A stretch of DNA of 63,889 bases from Candidatus Atribacteria bacterium UBA6794 (GCA_002452835.1 DKFO01000081.1:1-63889), one strand, 5' to 3'; numbered from the stretch's first letter, positions 9,852 to 41,605 are shown. Numbers and translations are program-made. The notes: generated by a model from the letters alone, not told the origin.

Positions 9852-9960
9852 TTTTATAAAAAAATCCCATACCGAAATTTCGTCTCGTATAGGATATTCA
9901 ATATTTCCTGCTTCCCAATACGGGGGCTCAATAATTTCTTATTGAACCTTACGGTTAACT
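9852..9960 (-). ncRNA. Structured leader, candidate Moco/Tuco riboswitch (weak call)
   Basis: On the minus strand there is a 10-bp stem with a GAAA loop (GGUUCAAUAA-GAAA-UUAUUGAGCC, 9925-9948), a CCUAUAC..GUAUGGG hairpin, and AAAGGAG near the 3' end. It sits upstream of the first gene of the Moco operon. The consensus match is from memory only. Confidence 0.3.
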
Positions 9961-10332
9961 ATCATAGAACAACTCTTTAAGATAGTCAACTCTAAGAAAT
10001 ATTATTAATTTATTAAATAGCTCTTTAATTATACCCAAATTCGGTTAATTTTTCAAAGGATTGATTTATAAGTGTTGTTCATTTTCTAATTGCTATTGAA
10101 ATAATTATTATTTTTGTTAAAACATAGAAGTGTACTTATAAATAGAAACAGGGATGATGGTAGATAATCAGGTAATCAATAATTATGAAGAATAATTTCA
10201 ACTTAATAGTATTAAAATGTTAATGATTAATATACTTAAAAATTAATAAGAAAATAAGAATATTACCATGAATATATAGCATTTATCCATAACAGCTTAT
10301 TTGGAAATGGTTAGTACGGCATAAAATAATAA

Positions 10333-30475: not shown

Positions 30476-30877
30476 AACAAATCCTTTTTTTCTTCATCTA
30501 TTCTATACTTGAAAAAATTCATTACTTATTAAAGACTTATTTTATTTTTTCTTTTACTTTAGATGTTCTAAAAGAAGGTAATCAGGGGAGGTATCCCCTG
30601 AAACCTCTTAAGGAGAATACCCTGGTAAAAAATAATATTTTCTTGCCTAATAATAACACAAGAAGATAGGAGGAGCAAACTACTTTAAAGAAGCCTTCTT
30701 TATTACTAAACTTCTGGCAGGAAACAAAGATTTATGGTATATTTAATATAATACTTTATAGTTGTACACTAAGAATACTTCGTAAAATATGCCATCTCGA
30801 GCGAGAACATAAATGAAGCACCTGCTTATTTTTATTTATACACCATCATGCTACAAAAAATAGAGGGGACAATTGCT

Positions 30878-32524
30878 ATGGATGCCGTTCAAAAATTTCA
30901 GGAGCTACTTAAAAAGATTTTCCAGTTTGAAGCCTCTGATTTAGATTTCGGAATTTATCGCGTTTTGAATTACAAAAGAGATAGGATAGAGAAATTTATT
31001 CAGGAAGACCTTAAAGATAAAATAGAATCTGCCTTTGCTAAGCATAAAGATGAAAGACTGACTGACCTGAATCAGAGATTGGAAAGTGCGAAAGAGAAGG
31101 TTAATCATAATTTGGGACCAACGGCTTTCACGCCTACCGGAGACCTTAAAGAAGAGTTTAAGGATACACCTATCGGCAAAGATTTCCTTTCAGTAAAAGC
31201 GCAAAAAGAAGAAGTAGAAGCGATTGACGAGATTAAATTACAGGTTTTCAATGACCTTTATAATTTCTTCTCTCGCTACTACGAAGAAGGCGATTTTGTT
31301 CCCCATTACCGCTATTCTATAAAAGGGCATAAATATGCCATTCCTTATAATGGCGAAGAAGTAAAACTCTACTGGGTGAATGCAGAGCAATATTACACAA
31401 AAACAGGCTTTCTTTTCCGCGACTACACATTTTCAATTCATTCCCCTTCTCTGAAGGGGTGGCAGGCGAAGCCTGACGGGGTAGTCAAAGTTATCTTTCG
31501 CATCGTTTCAGCCAGAGAAGAACTCGCTTCAAACAAAGCCACCAAGGAGAGATTCTTTATTCTTGACGATGAAACACCGATAGAAATTGTTCCCTCTCCC
31601 CTGGCAGGAGAAGTTAAGGGTGAGGGGGAAATAATTATCCGCTTTCAGTATAGAGAACTTACCGAAGATGAAGTAAAGGACTATGAGGTAGGAGGAGGAA
31701 GCAACGTTGCCAGACAGGAGAAGATTAACCAGAGAAGTTATGAAAAGGCACTAAAAATGATTAATGATACTATTTTTAAGGAAGCTTTGAGCAGGGAGTA
31801 TAAAAGCGAAAAGCCACTTTTCTTTTATCACATCTCAAGATTCACCGCTAAAAATACCAGGGATTACTTTATCCACAAAAACCTTAAAAAATTCCTCTCT
31901 GAACAACTGGATTACTTCATCAAAGCCGAGGTTTTAGATATTGATACCCTGGGAGGAGAAAAGTTTTTAGATAAACATATAACCAGAGCCAGAGTAGTGC
32001 GAGAAATTGGAGAGGACCTCATTGATTTTCTCTCCCAGATTGAGGATTTCCAGAAAAGGCTATGGGAGAAAAAGAAATTTGTCTTAAAAACAGAGTATGT
32101 AATTACCATAGATCGGGTACCAGAAGAATTTCACCAGGAAATCTGGAATAACGAAGAACAGAAGAAAGAATGGAAAGAGTCAGGATTTGATATACCGTCC
32201 TCAGTATCTGCCCTGCAAAAGCAAGAATCTAAACTCCCCATTGATACTAAATACTTTAGCCAGGAATTCAAAGAAAAACTCCTTGAGAAATTAACCGAAA
32301 TCCCCTCTCCCTCGACGGGAGAGGGTAAGGGTGCTAATTTAGATGACCTTTTAGATGGCTTGCTCATAAAAAGCGAAAACTGGCAGGCGCTGAATTTGCT
32401 TCTGGATAAATATAAGGAAAAAGTGCAGACCATCTATATTGACCCACCTTTTAACAAAGAGCAGGATGCCGACTATCTTTACAATGTGAAATATAAAGAT
32501 TCCACCTGGATGAGCCTGTTGTAA
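30878..32524 (+). pseudogene. 5' fragment of a long Type III-like DNA methyltransferase (mod), truncated just after motif IV
   Basis: The reading frame ends at ..TIYIDPPFNKEQDADYLYNVKYKDSTWMSLL*. That is the DPPY-type motif IV plus the following W-x-S-x region. There is no motif I/AdoMet-binding half. It carries two in-frame family A repeat insertions. Confidence 0.7.
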
Positions 32525-32625: not shown

Positions 32626-32670
32626 AAATATTTTAAAATATTTGACATATTTTAAAATATTTGTTACAAT
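32626..32670 (+). promoter_or_regulatory. Consensus sigma70-type promoter overlapped by two palindromic boxes
   Basis: TTGACA (32642-32647), a 17-nt spacer, then TACAAT (32665-32670). An 18-bp perfect palindrome AAATATTTTAAAATATTT lies at 32626-32643 and a 14-bp palindrome ATATTTTAAAATAT at 32647-32660. AGGAG precedes the ATG at 32710. Confidence 0.6.
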
Positions 32671-32709
32671 TTATAAAAATATGATTTTTTACGTAAATAG
32701 GAGAATTAT

Positions 32710-32940
32710 ATGACAGGAGCTAGTAAATACGAAACACCGGGAGAAAAATTTAAACGATTGGCGACCAAGAGAACAAATGAGGTATTGAAAAGATTAAAAA
32801 TACTCGGGAACTGCTCTAACAGACAGGTTTATGAATATACAGAGGAGGAGGTTGAAGCAATATTTTCTGCTATTGATCGCAAGGTAAAAGAAGTGAAAGC
32901 AAAGTTTTACTTTCCGAAGGAAGAAAAATTCAAACTTTGA
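32710..32940 (+). CDS. Small basic protein of unknown function (first gene of the cassette, possible regulator)
   Basis: 76 aa with a good RBS. Its stop is 11 nt before the next start. No motif recognised. Confidence 0.6.
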   Translation: MTGASKYETPGEKFKRLATKRTNEVLKRLKILGNCSNRQVYEYTEEEVEAIFSAIDRKVKEVKAKFYFPKEEKFKL

Positions 32941-32951
32941 GGGGGTTGATT

Positions 32952-34952
32952 ATGTCTGGAAGATTAATTGACGCTTATCTGGGCGAAATTGGGGTAAGAA
33001 GAACTGTTCGCAACTGGCCGGAGGATATAAAAGCTATTGTTGATGGTTATAGAGCATATACAACGCTACCTCATGCTGTACAAAAGGATGCCATCCAGAA
33101 TGGCTGGAGTGCCAGAAAAAACAAGAAAGGAAGAGAATGGAGTTTTACTTTTCAACTGGTTGAAGGAAGAGAACGACAATATTTATTGATGACCGATCAA
33201 GGAACTACAGGACTTACCGGAAAAGTTTTAAAACCGGAGGAATATGAAGAAGATTTACCACCTGAGGAAAGATGGGGAAGGTTTGAAGGAGTCGCCTTCA
33301 CCCAGTCCCGTTCAGAAAGAACTCTTGGTTCGAGGGGCAGAGGAAAATTTATTTTTGTTGGTGCTTCGAAAGAACAAACGATTTTATATGATACACTCAG
33401 AGATGACGGTACTTATAGATTTGGCTTCAGAACCGTGATAAAAACTGAATCACCTGTAGCTGCCTATGATGGTGAAAAAGGTAAAGTTAAATTGGGAGAA
33501 ATGACCGATAATCAAATTGAGCCACTATCTACGGTTGGTACCAGAGTTATTATTGTTGAACCGGTGGATGAAGTTGTTGAGGCTATCAAAAACGGACTTT
33601 TTCTCCGTTTTATAGGAGAAACTTGGTGGGAGATAATATCTAAATACCGTGCCTGTATTAAAGTAAAATGTGGGGAAAAGGAAGATCTGGCGAGAATCCC
33701 GGAAGAGTTTGAACTAAAAAAGGAAGATTCTAAAGAGTTTAAGGTATGGATTAGACAAAATAATATTAAAATTTCTGTTAGCTTCGGTGAAGCGAAAATA
33801 AAAAATCTTCATATAGTATATTGTAAAGACCCAGTTCCTGAAGATATAAGAGGTGTAGCTATCCAGAGGGATGGAATGAAAATATGTGCGATTGAACCAA
33901 GATATATGGGTAAAGAAATTGCAGAAAGAACCTTCGGTTATATTAACTTCGATGCAGATACAGAAGAACTTTTACTTGAAGATGAGGGGATAGAACATTA
34001 TTCCTTTGATTTCCGCCGTTCTCTTCCAAGTAATATAAAAAGAGTAGTGGAAGAGGGAATGATAACTTTTGCAAGAGAAAAATTGGGTTATGGCGGAGAT
34101 GCAAGAGAAATACATAGGGAACAGCAACGAAATGCTGAAAGAAGAGCTTTGACAGTGGTAAATAATTTTGCCCGTGCTCTGGGTATAGGGGCGGGACCTG
34201 GACCTAGTCGTGGTGGAGGAGGTGGTGAAAGAACTCCTAAAAGGACACGAATTCAGATGGCAGAGTTAATATTACCCCGTCCTGACGATCTGAGAATAAA
34301 TTATGGGGAGAAAGTGAGAAATATAGCAATAAAAATAGTAAACGATGGAGAACGAGATGTTGATATGCGAGTTAAACTTTTCCTTAGGTTTTATGATAAA
34401 CCTCTCAAAACTTTTCTTGAACAAGATATTACTGTTAGGGCGAATAGCACTACAGGTAATTTAGGACCATTTGAAGAGATATTCACTAGAGATGAGTATC
34501 CCAATATGGGCAAATATACAATTGTGGCAAAAATTGTATCCCTCATGGATGAAGATAAAGGGAAAGAATTGGATTATAAGACAAAAAACTTCTATCTTGA
34601 AGAAGATCCTCCGAGGCAGGGATTATTTGAAGGATGTGAGGCTTTTGGTTTTCCGGATAAAGAACCTATAAAATACTGGATGGGATACAGTGAATACGGA
34701 AGTGAAAGAGGGCTCATTCTTTATTACAATTTGAATCATCCGGGCTATACATCTGTATCTGAAAATGAGGACGATCTTGCTGAATATATACTCAGAATAG
34801 CCGGACAGGAAATTTGCATATATGATTTAATGCAGGAAAACCCAATTCTTTTTAGAGATAATCAGAGAGACGAATCTCAAGAGATTTTAAAACAGGAACG
34901 GAAAGTCGTTGGTGAACTAATATATAGATTTCGTAAAGGAGAAGTTGAATAA
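32952..34952 (+). CDS. GHKL (Bergerat-fold) ATPase-like protein with a large unknown C-terminal region
   Basis: N-box-like DAIQNGWSA, G1-like TDQGTTGLTG and G2-like GSRGRGKFIF in the first ~160 aa. A Gly-rich linker (GAGPGPSRGGGGGERTPKR) follows, then a ~220-aa C-terminal region. ATG at 32952 follows GAGGGGG. Confidence 0.6.
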   Translation: MSGRLIDAYLGEIGVRRTVRNWPEDIKAIVDGYRAYTTLPHAVQKDAIQNGWSARKNKKGREWSFTFQLVEGRERQYLLMTDQGTTGLTGKVLKPEEYEEDLPPEERWGRFEGVAFTQSRSERTLGSRGRGKFIFVGASKEQTILYDTLRDDGTYRFGFRTVIKTESPVAAYDGEKGKVKLGEMTDNQIEPLSTVGTRVIIVEPVDEVVEAIKNGLFLRFIGETWWEIISKYRACIKVKCGEKEDLARIPEEFELKKEDSKEFKVWIRQNNIKISVSFGEAKIKNLHIVYCKDPVPEDIRGVAIQRDGMKICAIEPRYMGKEIAERTFGYINFDADTEELLLEDEGIEHYSFDFRRSLPSNIKRVVEEGMITFAREKLGYGGDAREIHREQQRNAERRALTVVNNFARALGIGAGPGPSRGGGGGERTPKRTRIQMAELILPRPDDLRINYGEKVRNIAIKIVNDGERDVDMRVKLFLRFYDKPLKTFLEQDITVRANSTTGNLGPFEEIFTRDEYPNMGKYTIVAKIVSLMDEDKGKELDYKTKNFYLEEDPPRQGLFEGCEAFGFPDKEPIKYWMGYSEYGSERGLILYYNLNHPGYTSVSENEDDLAEYILRIAGQEICIYDLMQENPILFRDNQRDESQEILKQERKVVGELIYRFRKGEVE

Positions 34953-35632
34953 TGGCTGTAATTATTAGAGAAGATAAAATTATCGAAGGCAAAAAATATG
35001 AGGTTTTAGTATATCGAGCGAAGCCAGGTAAACTTGTTACCGAGGAAGAAAAGAAAAGAGCAGAAAAGTTTGATCGTTTTCTCTCGGGAGAAATGAAAGG
35101 AATAGAGCAAGAAATGGAAAATAATGGTTTGATTAAACTAAAAGGGAAAAAAGGTAAGGTACATGAACTGTGGTACGAAGTGGGTAAAAAGCTTGAGTTT
35201 GTCATGGATACCACTGTTGTGGCTGCTGAAGACAGGGAATTTGTTTGGCGTGCAATATACGATCATGCTGGGAAACTTGCCCCTGGGCCTCTGACAGAAA
35301 GAGTAAGAAGAGATCCTGAAACAAGTCACTTTTCGTACTGCTATAAATTATCCCGGTTTCCTTGGGATTTTGTCGATTCGGCGGGTGACTGGACTTCGTG
35401 GAGCGAATTTTTTGATAGAAGAGAAACAAAAAATGATTCACGTATCATAGAATGGCTTAATAAAAAAGCAAAGGAAAGTAAAATTTTAAGCAGACAGAAC
35501 TGGCTAAGACCCTTAACAAAAGCAATTCATCGGGACTTTGACAAAATAGATACCACGGTTTTCTCTACTGATGAGCTGTATGGACGGCTTGAAAAAATTT
35601 TTTCTGGTTTGAAATTAAATGAAAAGAAATAA
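34952..35632 (+). CDS. Hypothetical 226-aa protein, function unknown (candidate effector/partner)
   Basis: The start overlaps the upstream stop (TAATG). The end overlaps the Dcm start by 14 nt. No confident motif. Confidence 0.6.
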   Translation: MAVIIREDKIIEGKKYEVLVYRAKPGKLVTEEEKKRAEKFDRFLSGEMKGIEQEMENNGLIKLKGKKGKVHELWYEVGKKLEFVMDTTVVAAEDREFVWRAIYDHAGKLAPGPLTERVRRDPETSHFSYCYKLSRFPWDFVDSAGDWTSWSEFFDRRETKNDSRIIEWLNKKAKESKILSRQNWLRPLTKAIHRDFDKIDTTVFSTDELYGRLEKIFSGLKLNEKK

Positions 35633-36995
35633 TAAATTTTATGCTATAGATCTTTTTGCTGGATGTGGCGGATTGAGTGAAGGATTCACACAAGCCGGAT
35701 TTGAAGTTATTGCACAGGTAGAGATGAATAGATGTGCATGTGAAACATTAAAAACAAGACATATATATTATGGATTGAAAAAACTTAAAAAAGGATATCT
35801 TTATGACAAATATCTGAAGGAGGAAATTAATAAAGAAGAAATCCTGTCCAAGTTTGATGACCTTGCGGAATCCATCTCTTACAGAGTAATTCAAGCAACT
35901 TTCGGGAATGATGAAAAGTCTGAAATTCTGGGAAGAATAGAATCAACAAGACAATACCATAAAGCTCCGAAATTTCATGTGCTTCTCGGGGGACCTCCCT
36001 GTCAGCCCTACTCAATTGCAGGAAGAGCAAGGGATCCATGGGGGATGGAAAATGATGAGAGGCACTTTCTCTACAAACATTATCTTGAAATTCTGGAGAG
36101 TTTCCAGCCAGACATTTTCGTATACGAAAATGTACCGGGTCTTTTTACAGCAAAAGCCGGTGGTAATAGAATATTTGAAAAGATGTTAGATGATTTTATC
36201 TCGCTCCATCCAGCCTATGAAATAATACCCCCTCTTCAGCAGATTTATACCGAACCATGTAATTATATTCTCGATACTGCTGATTTTTTAATCCCGCAGA
36301 GAAGAAAAAGACTGCTTCTCGTGGGATACAGGAAATCTCTTGAGGAAAAAAATCCAGAGATTAAAAATATTTTTACAAAGTTACAAAAACTTGCGCTCAA
36401 AAATAGAAAAAAAGGATACCTTACTGTTGATGACGCCATTGGTGATCTTCCTCCGCTAAGACCCGGTGAAGGCAGTAATGGATGGTACGGTTATTATCAG
36501 CCAAGTTCGAGTTTAAAGGCCTATCAAACAGAAATGAAAAGAGGGTCTCCCGGTACAGTCAATCACAGTGCAAGAACGCATATGAAGAGTGATCTTGAAA
36601 GATATAAATTTTTCATTGAATATCATAAAAATGGTAACGGAGCTGCAACTTTAGATACTCTTAAAATGGAATGCCCCGATCTTTTACCAGAACACAAACA
36701 TCTTGATAAATTTCTTGATAGATTTAAAGTTCAATGGTGGACACGTCCTTCCTCGACCATTACAGCTCACATATGTAAAGACGGGCACTATTACATCCAT
36801 CCTGATATAAGTCAGTGTCGTTCTTTTACTGTAAGAGAGGCAGCGAGATGCCAGTCGTTTCCTGATAATTTTAAATTTGAAGGACCACGAACCGAGCAGT
36901 TCAAACAGGTAGGGAATGCGGTCCCCCCAAAACTAGCAAAAGCCATCGGGATATTTATTATGCGTGAACTGGAGAAAGTTTATGGAGAAAAATAA
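35619..36995 (+). CDS. dcm: DNA (cytosine-5)-methyltransferase
   Basis: Motif I FAGCGGLSEGF, motif IV GGPPCQPYS, motif VI YENVPGL, motif VIII QRRKRLLLVG, motif IX TVREAARCQSFPDNF and motif X QVGNAVPP. Confidence 0.92.
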   Translation: MKRNNKFYAIDLFAGCGGLSEGFTQAGFEVIAQVEMNRCACETLKTRHIYYGLKKLKKGYLYDKYLKEEINKEEILSKFDDLAESISYRVIQATFGNDEKSEILGRIESTRQYHKAPKFHVLLGGPPCQPYSIAGRARDPWGMENDERHFLYKHYLEILESFQPDIFVYENVPGLFTAKAGGNRIFEKMLDDFISLHPAYEIIPPLQQIYTEPCNYILDTADFLIPQRRKRLLLVGYRKSLEEKNPEIKNIFTKLQKLALKNRKKGYLTVDDAIGDLPPLRPGEGSNGWYGYYQPSSSLKAYQTEMKRGSPGTVNHSARTHMKSDLERYKFFIEYHKNGNGAATLDTLKMECPDLLPEHKHLDKFLDRFKVQWWTRPSSTITAHICKDGHYYIHPDISQCRSFTVREAARCQSFPDNFKFEGPRTEQFKQVGNAVPPKLAKAIGIFIMRELEKVYGEK

Positions 36996-37647
36996 TGTAC
37001 TGCCCAAAATCCCTTCACAGAGGGAAATAAGTTCATTCCGTACAAAACTTCTACGCTGGTTTAACAAAAACGAAAGGAAATACCCATGGAGAGACACCAG
37101 TGATCCCTTCAGAATTTTGATAGCCGAAATGATGCTAAGACGGACCAGAGCAGATCAGGTGAAGCATGTGTATGAACAATTATTTCTGGAGTATCCTGAT
37201 ATAGAGAGCCTTACAGATGCCGAAGATGAAAAAATAGAGAAAATTTTGTATCCTCTGGGACTGAAATGGAGAACACAGGCATTCAGTCTTGTAGCCAAGG
37301 AAATAAAAGTAAAATATGGCTCGAGGGTCCCTGAAACAAGAGATAAGTTGAGAAAATTACCAGGAGTGGGTGAATATGTAGCAGGTGCTGTATTATCGAT
37401 AGGTTATGGTAAAAAAGAATGGATGGTGGATAGTAATATCGTAAGGGTCTTCAGAAGGTATTTCGGGGTCGGAACTTCTAGAGAAGGAAGAAGGGATAAA
37501 CATGTTATAGAAATGGCGAAATTATATGTTAACTGTAATGATCCCCGGAAGGCAAATCTCGCAATTCTCGATTTTTCTGCTCTTATCTGCGCTTCCAGAA
37601 ATCCCGTATGCAAAGAATGTCCTATAAAAATGGAATGTAGATGTTAA
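36982..37647 (+). CDS. HhH-GPD [4Fe-4S] DNA glycosylase, MutY/Mig-like (probable T/U:G mismatch glycosylase)
   Basis: HhH LRKLPGVGEYVAGAVL with no EndoIII-type Lys. Catalytic Asp in MVDSNIVRVFRRYFG. Cluster motif C-x6-C-x2-C-x5-C (CASRNPVCKECPIKMEC). The start overlaps the dcm end. Confidence 0.75.
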   Translation: MEKNNVLPKIPSQREISSFRTKLLRWFNKNERKYPWRDTSDPFRILIAEMMLRRTRADQVKHVYEQLFLEYPDIESLTDAEDEKIEKILYPLGLKWRTQAFSLVAKEIKVKYGSRVPETRDKLRKLPGVGEYVAGAVLSIGYGKKEWMVDSNIVRVFRRYFGVGTSREGRRDKHVIEMAKLYVNCNDPRKANLAILDFSALICASRNPVCKECPIKMECRC

Positions 37648-37728: not shown

Positions 37729-37976
37729 GTTATACCCAACTTCACCTTTTTTTAAACCATAAATGCTGAAAAAACCTTAGTTTTCAAGGTTTATAAGATT
37801 TTAAAACAAGATTTTGTAGACTAAGGTATTGCGTATTCTGTTTTGTTATGGTATTTTTAAAAAAATACTATAATGCTTGGTATCAGTGATATTGAAAATT
37901 GCATACTAATTTAAAAATAACTTTCTTTTGATTACCAAGGGTTCTATGGTTTGAAAGAGTGAAGTTGGGTTATACA
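37729..37976. mobile_element. MITE-like element (~250 bp) with ~30-bp imperfect terminal inverted repeats
   Basis: Left arm GTTATACCCAACTTCACC..AAACCAT (37729-37760). Right arm ATGGTTT..GTGAAGTTGGGTTATAC (37946-37975). The 9-bp TCTAGCTCT occurs on both sides (37710-37718 and 37991-37999). Confidence 0.6.
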
Positions 37977-37990
37977 ATTATTATGTAATT

Positions 37991-39593
37991 TCTAGCTCTC
38001 TTTTTGATGATATAAAAAAAGAAGTCTCCAAAATAAATATTCTCATTGGCTCAAAGAAATTTATTGAAGGCTGGGATACCTGGCGTGTTTCTTCAATGGG
38101 ACTGCTAAATATTGGCAAAGGACAAGGTCCTCAGATTATCCAGTTGTTTGGAAGAGGAGTAAGGCTTAAAGGTAAAGGTATGTCTTTGAAAAGAAGTGAG
38201 CGCCCTGCCTATTTGCCCAGCAACCACTCCTCCCCTAGAGAGGAATTTTGGCTACAGCTCTTAGAAATACTCAATATTTATGGAATTAAAGCTGACTACC
38301 TGAGTAAGTTTTTAGAAGCAATCAGGAGGGAAGAAGCGGAATTTGAGACTATTGGAATACCTGCCCAACCTCAATACCAGGAAAAATGGGAGACTCTTTA
38401 TACCCTTTCTAAACCCGAAAAGAGGTTTGAGGAAGAAGAGATCTTAAGATTAGAGATTGACGACAGAATTTATTTTACTGTTGACCTCTTGCCAAAAGTA
38501 TCAATGTATTTATCAAAAGAGAGAAAAGAGGATGGTATAAAGACAGGAGAAATAAAAACAGCATTTGATGAATTGAGAATTCCGGAAGATATTATAGATT
38601 TGCTCGATGAGGGAAGGATATGGCAGGAAATAATTGAATTTAAAGTGCAGAGAAACTATTGGAATTTAGTTTTTGAGAAAGATATGTTAAAAAATATCCT
38701 TTTATCTGATAGATATACCCTCCTTTCGCTTCCCGAAATTTTGGAAGTTAAAGATGAAGAAGACAAAAAACAGCTGGAAGATGTGGCGCTCCTGATTATT
38801 AAAAAATATCTGGATTTATTTTACAGGAAGAATGCCAAACGTTTTGAGTCAAAAAACTTACGTTATGATAAGGTTAGACAACTACCATTGCCCCCTTATC
38901 TCTGAAGAAAGACAGGGTTACCTGGTGCAGGTAGTTAAGAAGGAGAAGGAGCTGATCAAAGAGATAAGGAGCCTGGTAGATGATTTAGAAAAACTATTTA
39001 AAGAAGAAAATACCAGTTTGCCCCGAGTGTATTTTGATGGTTCTCTCTATGTGCCGATGCTACTTCAAAGCAAGAAAATAAATAAAATTTCTCCCGCGGG
39101 TTTAGTGGATAGTGAACAAAAATTTGTGCTGGGACTAAGAGAATATTTGAAAAGGCATAAAGATAAATTTCCGAGTGAGATATATCTTTTAAGGAATTAT
39201 CCTTTTTCCGGGGTGGGTTTTCAACTTCAATGGGCTGGATTTTACCCTGATTTTATTATGTGGATTAAAGAAGGCAGGCAACAAACTCAAACTATTGTCT
39301 TTATAGACCCTAAAGGATTAGAACATATTAAAGGACTGGATAATGAAAAAATAAAATTTGCTGGCTTTCTGAATGAAAAGGATGACCCTGAAACGGTTAC
39401 TATAAAAAAGATTGAAAAGAGTCTCCGGGATAAAAATATCCGATTGGAATCTTTTATCCTTTCCAAAACTTCTTATGATGACTTGAGAAAAGGAGAAACT
39501 GTTTTTCCCACGATGGAAGAATTTATGGCTCACCACGTTTTATTCTTATCAGATAAAAATTGGCCTGAAAAATTAATCAGCATGATAATATAA
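37991..39593 (+). pseudogene. 3' fragment of a Type III-like restriction helicase-nuclease (res), also frameshifted
   Basis: Begins mid-protein at the helicase motif VI region (FIEGWDTWRV..QLFGRGVRLKG). The frame changes at the C5 run 38891-38895. The C-terminal part has a PD-(D/E)xK-like YPDFIMW..IVFIDPKG. Confidence 0.7.
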
Positions 39594-40680: not shown

Positions 40681-41325
40681 TTATAAAACACTGGGGCTAA
40701 TAACAATAGCCATACTATATTTGGGATTGGCGGTTAGATTTAAATTCATAAATTGGTCATAAGAGATAGTATAGTCTTTCCCGATGGTCGGATCATTGGT
40801 AACTATTTCTTTTTTCTCAGAATCAAAGCCAACAATAACACGAGCATGAGCCAGAGGGTTAGTTTCCTTATATTTCTGTATTGCTATTAAGGGAATTTGG
40901 TTGTAAAGATATTTTTCAATTTCTTCCAGGGTTAAAACAGTAAAGGAGGCCTCAAATCCTAAATCCTTAGCAAATTTAACCATTTTATAAATATCCCCTA
41001 AACCATCTGGTTTAATAATTTCTTGGGCTAATTCCTGCTGGGTCACCTGAACTCCAAAATAATTTAAGGTCATTGCCCCGGAGGCAGGTAAGCACCAATT
41101 AGTACCGGCGTATTTCTGATAGGGAACTTCCAGATAAACTGAACCAGTCTTAGCCTTATAATCATTCTCTGTTAGGAAGCTGCTAGTGAGCAGATCACTC
41201 TCCTGATTAGCAAGCTCTGTTTCTGGTATAATTCCACTACAGGATGTTAAAAAGAATACCGCACTTATGATCAGTAAGATTTTACTGATGTTGATTAATT
41301 TTCCCCAAACTTTCATTTTATCCAC
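40681..41325 (-). CDS. C39-like (papain-fold) cysteine peptidase lipoprotein
   Basis: Lipobox LTSCSG, nucleophile region GTNWCLPASGAMTLNYFG and His region AHARVIVGFD. Confidence 0.7.
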   Translation of the reverse strand: MDKMKVWGKLINISKILLIISAVFFLTSCSGIIPETELANQESDLLTSSFLTENDYKAKTGSVYLEVPYQKYAGTNWCLPASGAMTLNYFGVQVTQQELAQEIIKPDGLGDIYKMVKFAKDLGFEASFTVLTLEEIEKYLYNQIPLIAIQKYKETNPLAHARVIVGFDSEKKEIVTNDPTIGKDYTISYDQFMNLNLTANPKYSMAIVISPSVL

Positions 41326-41377
41326 CCCTTATGACCAGTTGAAAAAGAAGCAAAGTTTGGGCAAAATAAAAAAAGGT

Positions 41378-41462
41378 GGTAGCCTGGCAACCTTGGTCTT
41401 AGACTTTAGGCCCATAACTTTGCGCCCTATTCTTTCGAATAGTTTGCCTTTTTCAACCTTAT
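41378..41462 (-). ncRNA. c-di-GMP-I (GEMM-I) riboswitch, proximal copy
   Basis: The minus strand reads GGCAAACUAUUCGAAAGAAUAGGGCGCAAAGUUAUGGGCCUAAAG..UUGCCAGGCUACC. This parallels V. cholerae Vc2 (GGCAAACCAUUCGAAAGAGUGGGACGCAAAGCCUCCGGCCUAAACC..). A U-run follows. Confidence 0.8.
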
Positions 41463-41517
41463 TATTTAAATTTTTTTATTTATACTTTTTATTTTTTTGC
41501 TAAAAGAAAAAGAAGTC

Positions 41518-41605
41518 GGTAGGCTGGCAATCTTAACAGTTTCCTGCCTTAGACCCAGTCCTTTGCGCCCTATTCTTTCGAATAGTTTGCCTTTTTCAAC
41601 TTCAA
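41518..41605 (-). ncRNA. c-di-GMP-I (GEMM-I) riboswitch, distal copy
   Basis: The minus strand reads GGCAAACUAUUCGAAAGAAUAGGGCGCAAAGGACUGGGUCUAAGGCAGG..UUGCCAGCCUACC, followed by CUUCUUUUUCUUUU. Confidence 0.8.

Follow-up and report, generated by a model that had tools for sequence, protein, structure and literature searches.

A conserved gene pair for a predicted GHKL ATPase and its partner protein, often linked to a cytosine methylase, in mostly uncultured bacteria and archaea

Our comparisons of sequences, structural models and gene neighborhoods show that a compact five-gene operon of Candidatus Atribacteria bacterium UBA6794 (GCA_002452835.1, DKFO01000081.1:1-63889; this whole stretch of 63,889 nucleotides is referred to here as the window) contains a conserved pair of genes, the first encoding a predicted GHKL ATPase of 666 amino acids (aa) and the second a 226-aa partner protein that we call p226. 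Within the operon a 76-aa leader protein, s76, is encoded in front of the pair, and a Dcm-type C5 cytosine DNA methyltransferase (Dcm) and a DNA glycosylase are encoded behind it. The conserved unit is the pair, usually accompanied by s76, and not the set of all five genes. The link to Dcm greatly exceeds chance and is stable within clades, including the clade of the window: diverse Dcm families lie no more than four genes away, on either strand, in 41 of the 82 non-redundant loci (window included) on which our locus counts are based. An initial annotation of this DNA had presented all five genes as one undescribed methylation-linked system. As a conserved cassette rather than a chance assembly that proposal stands, and at least six independent metagenome contigs show the same five-gene arrangement again, but the unit that is actually conserved is smaller than the one proposed.

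A scan of one genome per species for the ATPase family returned 80 loci from Chloroflexota, Bacteroidota, Proteobacteria, Planctomycetota, Patescibacteria (the candidate phyla radiation, CPR), DPANN, Bathyarchaeia and Asgard archaea, nearly all of them in metagenome-assembled genomes and one in an isolate, Paraliobacillus quinghaiensis. The family is large, with 459 matches at the 90% clustering level, every one of them unnamed, and 417 representatives at 50% identity clustering, down to 27% identity. Comparison of the neighborhoods bears out the early suggestion that the two unfamiliar genes belong together, since p226 lies directly 3' of the ATPase gene on the same strand in 72/82 loci, with the others mostly cut by contig ends or fragmented. 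Directly 5' of the ATPase gene we find s76 in 31/82 loci and an alternative gene for a protein of ~350 aa in 14/82, and the loci also include an HhH-GPD glycosylase (17/82) or Vsr (15/82). Layouts with a linked Dcm include the convergent and divergent arrangements typical of restriction-modification (R-M) systems, usually with Vsr or HhH-GPD alongside. In a neighbor-joining tree of the ATPases this linkage is structured by clade: Dcm together with a repair gene is present in most loci near the window and in nearly all of the clade of 800-aa ATPases, whereas Dcm is lacking from four archaeal loci near the window (L020, L023, L036 and L040) and from two entire clades, one CPR and one mostly proteobacterial. 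Conventional restriction enzymes are rare among 111 neighbors from 40 Dcm-linked loci scanned with PADLOC, and this rarity leaves the ATPase/p226 pair as the only conserved candidate effector. Toprim proteins are absent from the conserved neighborhood of the pair. MADS was rejected as a core component because the matches to it, seen among the neighbors of three loci, are parts of adjacent systems. An origin of the cassette from a plasmid or phage was likewise set aside, as no homologs were found in 72,556 plasmids (PLSDB), 50,697 phage genomes (INPHARED) or IMG/VR.

In the window the operon runs on the + strand from 32710 to 37647 as five packed open reading frames (ORFs) behind one near-consensus promoter. 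These encode s76 (32710-32940), a putative autoregulator or small subunit of GHKL cassettes; the ATPase (32952-34952; 666 aa from its ATG, or 671 aa from a TTG at 32937); its obligate partner p226 (34952-35632); Dcm (35619-36995, 458 aa); and a Mig.MthI-like HhH-GPD [4Fe-4S] DNA glycosylase (36982-37647; 221 aa from its ATG, or 227 aa from a GTG at 36964). The first two genes are 11 nt apart, the ATPase and p226 genes overlap by 1 nt (TAATG), and overlaps of 14 nt at both p226/Dcm and Dcm/glycosylase suggest co-translation. The promoter is of the sigma-70 type (TTGACA-17-TACAAT with a TG extension, 32642-32670, + strand), agrees with the consensus at 11/12 positions and is the top promoter-like match in the 9.4 kb between 30400 and 39800. 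Genes, junctions and promoter are thus all as the initial annotation had described them. In GC content the cassette (36.7%) shows no difference from its surroundings (35.6%).

The identity of the 666-aa protein is suggested by structure prediction and by its conserved motifs. Sequence models miss it: no match was obtained at E ≤ 0.1 in Pfam, NCBIfam or PADLOC-DB v2 and none in PHROGs, the Pfam model HATPase_c_3 is matched by 1/39 diverse members of the family (E 0.064), and family profiles built from close and from diverse alignments recovered nothing meaningful from the PDB by sequence. The AlphaFold model (mean pLDDT 72.6), when compared by Foldseek with the PDB, nevertheless aligns over its whole length with Topo VI-B (1.8e-11, with a probability of 1.0 for the matches overall). 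The best such match is Methanosarcina mazei Top6B (9o0g, 1mx0), with 665-694 aligned columns at ~10% identity and a TM-score of ~0.3, and the likeness covers the GHKL domain, a transducer with a long helix, and a C-terminal beta-sandwich. Further matches are to the N and M domains of Hsp90, GRP94 and TRAP1 (1e-8 to 1e-7) and to the ATPase modules of MORC3/4 (~1e-7), the latter over ~410-450 columns with target-normalized TM-scores of 0.50-0.52 that take in the GHKL domain and then an S5-fold transducer. All of the ATP-binding motifs are conserved in the family, with D or E at the position of the catalytic base. In motif I (QK[DE]AIQN) N50 is kept in 82/85 sequences and position 46 is D/E, and motifs II (D82-x-G-x-x-G87), III (G126-x-x-G129-x-G131-K132) and IV (G196-x-R198) are kept in at least 81/85; K284, H349 and N593 are also conserved across these 85 sequences. 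From the model, then, we take this protein to be a GHKL (Bergerat-fold) ATPase with an intact active site and a transducer, in a layout like that of Topo VI-B and MORC, and the earlier call of GHKL motifs by eye was correct. The transducer ends in ExxxH (E345, H349), with H349 present in 80/85 sequences; PMC2292703 describes ExxxH at the C-terminal end of S5 as a hallmark of paraMORC2, a likeness at the level of the motif. Beyond the transducer the model predicts a long helix, an Ig-like beta-sandwich and an alpha/beta tail, and no nuclease-like constellation is conserved there in the family. Two candidates for one were examined and dropped. The HNH-like YNxxH of the tail (N593/H596) lies in a low-confidence part of the model and retains only N593 in most of the family, and the extra ~124 aa of the ~800-aa ATPase variants are a tandem duplicate of the beta-sandwich and not a hidden nuclease.

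The AlphaFold model of p226 is confident (pLDDT 89.6, pTM 0.85) and shows a beta-hairpin at the N-terminus with a helical bundle after it. Foldseek found no relatives of this fold (best E 0.68 in the PDB and 0.97 in BFVD), and we regard the matches to the respiratory syncytial virus nucleoprotein and to designed repeats (E 0.68 / 0.97) as noise. Pfam, NCBIfam, PADLOC-DB v2 and PHROGs hold no model that matches p226, and a profile of its family found nothing in the PDB. Conservation across the family (at least 80%) is limited to G78, W99, W147, W150, R164 and R186, with mostly acidic residues at positions 94, 162 and 200; neither a Toprim domain nor a conserved tyrosine is present. This pattern looks like that of a structural or DNA-binding partner and not of a classical metal-dependent nuclease. 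Two readings of its motifs were discarded: the arginine of a HEPN-like Rx4-6H (R120..H126) is not conserved in the family and no HEPN structure was matched, and the residues of a possible PD-(D/E)xK site (D146...E158-x-K160) are not conserved family-wide. We also found no profile similarity between p226 and the partner proteins of 225, 240, 247, 259 and 285 aa in other cassettes led by s76, and so do not consider them related.

By its sequence Dcm is an intact C5 methyltransferase, matching PF00145 at 1e-53 and TIGR00675 at 7e-51. Its translation carries FAGCGG, PPCQPYS, ENVPG, QRRKR, the stretch RSFTVREAARCQSFPD and GNAVPP, which correspond to motifs I, IV (PCQ), VI (ENV), VIII, IX and X, the same six that had been reported for it. 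Its top PADLOC model is DrmMII (PDLC02649, 8.7e-137), but the methylase alone matches, since no protein of the locus gave a PADLOC match to the other genes of DISARM class 2 (the DrmA helicase, DrmB with DUF1998, DrmC with PLD, and DrmE). The downstream glycosylase, which had been called intact and does appear so, matches the HhH-GPD model at 1.8e-8 and has Mig.MthI (1KEA) as its nearest solved relative (4e-43, full length, residues 18-219). Its Fe-S motif, Cys-x6-Cys-x2-Cys-x5-Cys, is present (CASRNPVCKECPIKMEC), and its VDSN aligns with VDAN. A MutY C-terminal domain is not present in the 221 aa, and the score of 164 bits lies below the mutY equivalog cut-off of 286 bits (NCBIfam). We therefore predict an enzyme that repairs T:G mismatches arising from deamination of 5-methylcytosine (m5C). 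Because HhH-GPD (17 loci) and Vsr (15 loci) hold the same position beside Dcm, the glycosylase is probably a functional stand-in for Vsr that lies outside the effector, and this interchange also favors T:G as its substrate. It also matches the PADLOC model PDLC03398 ('REase_II, Type II nicking endonuclease') at 2.5e-46, the sole REase_II match in the locus, and automated tools may thus combine it with the adjacent MTase_II match and take the locus for a standard type II R-M system with nothing missing.

The company kept by these genes varies among related loci. Extra genes stand between dcm and the glycosylase gene in close relatives, namely a second GHKL protein of 552 aa (L001:12043-13701; HATPase_c_3, 3.6e-21) in one, and in another (L003:12188-15754) a HAD hydrolase together with a 956-aa protein that has PNP_UDP_1, NACHT-like and HEAT regions. 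In three CPR loci (L053, L056 and L072) and in L050 a DUF2130 protein is encoded directly 3' of the pair, followed in two of these four loci by an OLD-family ATPase-TOPRIM nuclease, and in lineages without a methylase the DUF2130/OLD genes might provide the pair with a different nuclease partner. Three other loci that have the pair (L021, L047 and L068, one of them from Paraliobacillus quinghaiensis) carry a gene for an AlwI/BpuJI-like restriction endonuclease beside Dcm.

Upstream of the operon, the 14-bp palindrome ATATTTTAAAATAT occurs in two exact copies on the + strand (32628-32641 and 32647-32660) that bracket the -35 box, form an inverted repeat with 16-nt arms of 100% complementarity and constitute a putative operator pair. 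These are its only copies in 63.9 kb, against 0.30 expected, and among 176 fetched loci the palindrome was found only upstream of close relatives of s76, including three loci (L009, L010 and L100) in which the effector genes differ. In other lineages different palindromes occupy the same promoter position, with TTGACA promoters, upstream of s76 in many related loci. The s76 family itself has 452 homologs, with 20 invariant columns in an aligned subset of 37 sequences, and matches nothing in Pfam, PADLOC, PHROGs or PDB profiles, helix-turn-helix (HTH) families included; its sole NCBIfam match is Hha (E 0.066). When this family was used to search metagenomes, s76 proved to head at least four further cassette types with GHKL ATPases and/or methylases. 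In addition to the ATPase/p226 pair, it is followed by a 595-630-aa GHKL ATPase and two unrelated proteins, behind which come Dcm and either a glycosylase or Vsr; by an N6/N4 methylase with a 225-aa and a 792-aa protein; or by a ~840-aa protein with a convergent N6/N4 methylase. The 595-630-aa ATPase is related to the 666-aa family (profile-profile probability 98.8%, residues 34-411), and HATPase_c_3 proteins occur in further cassettes led by s76. The leader is thus common to a whole group of GHKL/methylase cassettes. By analogy with the controller (C) proteins of R-M systems s76 is probably an autoregulator, and it may instead be a small structural subunit. Where s76 is missing the ~350-aa upstream protein often takes its place (14 loci), with an N-terminus that resembles ribbon-helix-helix by eye only; neither this gene nor a 167-aa alternative shows profile similarity to s76 or p226, and we rejected both as their relatives. 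Two cassettes led by s76 encode fusions, one of an RNA polymerase alpha C-terminal domain, HhH and sigma-70 region 4 (L162:1655-3046) and one of the DnaA C-terminal HTH and sigma-70 region 4 (L123:3136-4377), and these proteins with host-like DNA-binding modules might be sensors or decoys.

The general kind of operon described here was already predicted in 2008, and it is the ATPase family and its partners that are undescribed. According to Iyer, Abhiman and Aravind (PMC2292703), MORC and paraMORC ATPases with GHKL and S5 domains are found in R-M-like operons with cytosine methylases and very-short-patch repair (Dcm/Vsr) and have spread patchily and laterally in bacteria and archaea. The window shares the GHKL and S5 domains, the operon context and this kind of distribution, whereas its constant partners p226 and s76 are absent from the parts of the description that were consulted. 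The window further differs in that its ATPase is not detected by HATPase_c_3, its operon has no superfamily 2 helicase, HNH, PD-(D/E)xK, PLD, Z1 or AIPR partner, and a Mig-type glycosylase takes the place of Vsr in repair. The initial claim of an undescribed system therefore holds for the family and not for the kind. In the published literature we found no description of this ATPase family, p226 or s76, and no experimental study of a methylase-linked MORC/paraMORC operon. Pairs of GHKL (HEF_HK) and Response_reg_2 proteins that colocalize with C5 methylases and Vsr (Bellieny-Rabelo et al. 2021, PMC8011034) are similar in tightly linking a GHKL protein to a small uncharacterized partner; however, they match HATPase_c_3, HEF_HK and Response_reg_2 in Pfam, and the window proteins match none of these. 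GHKL-Shedu (paraMORC3, VcSduA) has been shown experimentally to be anti-phage (PMC12137116), but VcSduA has a C-terminal PD-(D/E)xK (DUF4263) nuclease, whereas the window ATPase has predicted beta-sandwich and helical C-terminal domains. In spite of the likeness to Topo VI-B, the window has no Top6A/Spo11 partner (Toprim and a winged helix with a catalytic Tyr), and p226 is helical. MthTI with Mig.MthI on pFV1 is a classical type II m5C R-M unit with a repair gene. Such units, and dcm-vsr, resemble the window in having a Dcm-type methylase followed directly by a T:G mismatch repair enzyme, but the window has no recognizable restriction endonuclease, and the ATPase and p226 stand in the R position; model and profile searches with s76, the 666-aa protein and p226 found no cognate endonuclease (PD-(D/E)xK, HNH, GIY-YIG, PLD or half-pipe). 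R-M systems with C proteins likewise have a small first gene co-transcribed with putative toxic genes and two palindromic sites at the promoter, whereas s76 has no Xre-type HTH match and the methylase of the window lies downstream in the same operon, with no promoter of its own. In short, the locus is not type II R-M because it has no endonuclease, not DISARM because the methylase alone matches, not a Dcm-linked Z1/AIPR operon, and not Topo VI because there is no Top6A.

The reading we favor, at somewhat less than an even chance, is that the operon is an R-M-like, ATP-driven defense unit of three modules, gated by m5C. In such a unit s76 would bind the twin palindromes around the -35 box and autoregulate the operon as a C protein does. 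The ATPase and p226, in an architecture taken from the model, would act as an ATP-driven dimeric DNA clamp that targets DNA without the resident m5C mark and then cuts it through a catalytic site that current methods miss, recruits a host nuclease, or traps it topologically and so blocks replication. Dcm would methylate host cytosines and thereby mark self, and the glycosylase would remove T from the T:G mismatches that follow m5C deamination, a task that falls to Vsr in sister loci. Speaking for this reading are the co-oriented adjacency of the pair, its clade-stable link to Dcm and a repair gene, the gene overlaps on both sides of dcm, the rarity of conventional restriction enzymes nearby, the palindromes that accompany s76, the likeness of the glycosylase to Mig.MthI and the prediction of 2008. 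Several observations weigh against it. The pair is found with no methylase within ~8 kb in 34 loci (of ~75 complete), where its neighbors are housekeeping genes and unrelated defense genes (ThsB, AbiD, GmrSD, CARF, PDC), and no non-Dcm methylases appear among the top Pfam and PADLOC families of 84 neighbors in these loci. Methylation linkage is therefore facultative and clade-specific, the effector needs no linked methylase, and the gate would be an add-on of some lineages, the window's included, rather than intrinsic to the effector. In L009, moreover, s76, Dcm and the glycosylase are 78%, 79% and 73% identical to those of the window and are combined with another effector set, which implies that effector and methylase are not co-specified as R and M subunits usually are. 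The position of dcm 3' of putative toxic effector genes, with only weak internal promoter-like sites upstream of it, is awkward for safe establishment in a new host. Furthermore, searches of s76, the 666-aa protein and p226 against Pfam, PADLOC, NCBIfam, PHROGs and PDB profiles agree with the initial annotation in finding no nuclease, helicase, Z1 or AIPR. Neither of the two larger proteins falls in a known restriction-endonuclease family, and PADLOC-DB v2 has no model for any of the three. Foldseek comparisons of the models of the 666-aa protein (PDB) and p226 (PDB and BFVD) gave no nuclease fold, and the p226 family has no conserved catalytic constellation. Z1 and AIPR have no Pfam match in the window genes and are absent from the 25 commonest Pfam families of the 84 neighbors in Dcm-less loci, with the Dcm-linked neighbors scanned by PADLOC only. 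A more specific proposal, which we consider improbable, is that the ATPase and p226 are a nuclease-free clamp of the MORC/Topo VI-B type that reads m5C and neutralizes unmethylated invaders by ATP-driven entrapment or compaction.

The 34 loci without a methylase, the clades that lack it altogether (CPR and proteobacterial) and the defense-island neighbors of the Dcm-less loci might also be taken to mean that s76, the ATPase and p226 are an autonomous defense or abortive-infection module triggered by infection, with dcm and the glycosylase gene as a separate orphan unit, comparable to dcm-vsr of E. coli, that has settled beside it repeatedly. The combination of the same Dcm/glycosylase chassis with other effectors in L009 fits this as well, as do the three loci in which an AlwI-like enzyme beside Dcm is possibly its true partner. 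We nevertheless hold this to be rather unlikely, considering that a Dcm adjacency of 50% far exceeds what proximity within defense islands would give and is stable within clades, that the genes of the window clade overlap in one operon under one promoter, and that other cassettes led by s76 also have methylases (N6/N4 or Dcm) as recurring partners. E. coli MutL stimulates Vsr, and the pair could by the same token serve a repair machine for m5C deamination, in which the ATPase would be a MutL-like matchmaker that acts with p226, stimulates the glycosylase or Vsr and coordinates downstream repair. The ATPase does co-occur with Dcm and either Vsr or HhH-GPD in ~32 loci, and in two related contigs a four-gene cassette, with no s76 called, sits exactly between mutS and uvrC (L005, 8001-12771; L006, 5826-10539). 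The GHKL+S5 architecture is also common to MutL, according to PMC2292703. Even so we doubt this explanation strongly, because 34 loci have the pair but no Dcm, Vsr or glycosylase, because the operator-controlled promoter and the leader, which R-M-like cassettes also have, are more in keeping with a toxic function than with repair, and because a patchy, horizontally transferred distribution and insertion in a dead R-M locus (see below) are typical of defense. A modification-dependent, type IV-like restriction, in which the ATPase and p226 would attack DNA with foreign modifications and Dcm would be unrelated or have its pattern ignored, seems to us very improbable. Like type IV enzymes the pair can stand alone with no methylase, and methyl-directed restriction enzymes do neighbor a few loci; however, Pfam, PADLOC and Foldseek searches detected no methyl-reading domain (SRA, YTH, DUF/Mrr-N or McrB-N), a system translationally coupled to an active Dcm would be in danger of attacking its own DNA, and a clade-stable link to Dcm is unexpected for type IV systems.

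The initial annotation had also placed the cassette in the former core of another R-M system, and the flanking genes agree. On the + strand upstream lies the N-terminal half of a type III Mod methyltransferase, a relic that ends just past its DPPF motif (30848-32524; PDLC03646, 1.8e-85, positions 3-525 of 1057). The C-terminal part of a type III Res protein follows the cassette on the + strand (38096-39593) as two overlapping ORFs, 38096-38905 and 38832-39593, that match PDLC03654 at positions 623-886 and 939-1115 of 1154. With these remnants as flanks, the cassette fills the gutted core of an older type III R-M system, and the frameshift in the Res relic (overlap 38832-38905) indicates that decay went on after the core was lost. 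As for the accompanying description as a mobile defense cassette, no integrase or other mobility gene and no terminal repeats were found flanking the cassette, so that mobility is something we can only infer. Non-coding DNA of 448 nt separates the glycosylase stop codon from the Res relic and holds a 17-nt inverted repeat (37734-37750 / 37954-37970, 88% complementary, arms 203 nt apart), the second arm of which is overlapped by a promoter-like TTGAAA-16-TACAAT (37951-37978). Further away, on the - strand, are two tandem c-di-GMP-I-type riboswitch aptamers (41374-41457 and 41515-41601; RF03167, 65 bits, and RF01051, 76 bits) upstream of a - strand gene (40681-41325) whose 214-aa product is peptidase C39/C70-like and has a signal-like N-terminus, and a molybdenum/tungsten cofactor riboswitch (RF01055, 46.8 bits, 9891-10008).

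The ATPase family described here is widespread, reaching from bacteria and the CPR to DPANN and Asgard archaea, and it is at the same time almost confined to uncultured lineages and unannotated. It offers a test case in which a methylase marks self and a conserved effector has no recognizable nuclease, to be set alongside open problems of the BREX kind, and the compact operon with its clear promoter and putative operator is a convenient entry to the MORC-like ATPases of prokaryotes. If s76 does control these operons, it would represent a new family of non-HTH controllers common to GHKL/methylase cassettes. If the pair should prove to be a nuclease-free clamp, it would be the prokaryotic parallel of eukaryotic silencing, in which MORC ATPases and DNA methylation are linked, and might even represent the setting from which that link arose.

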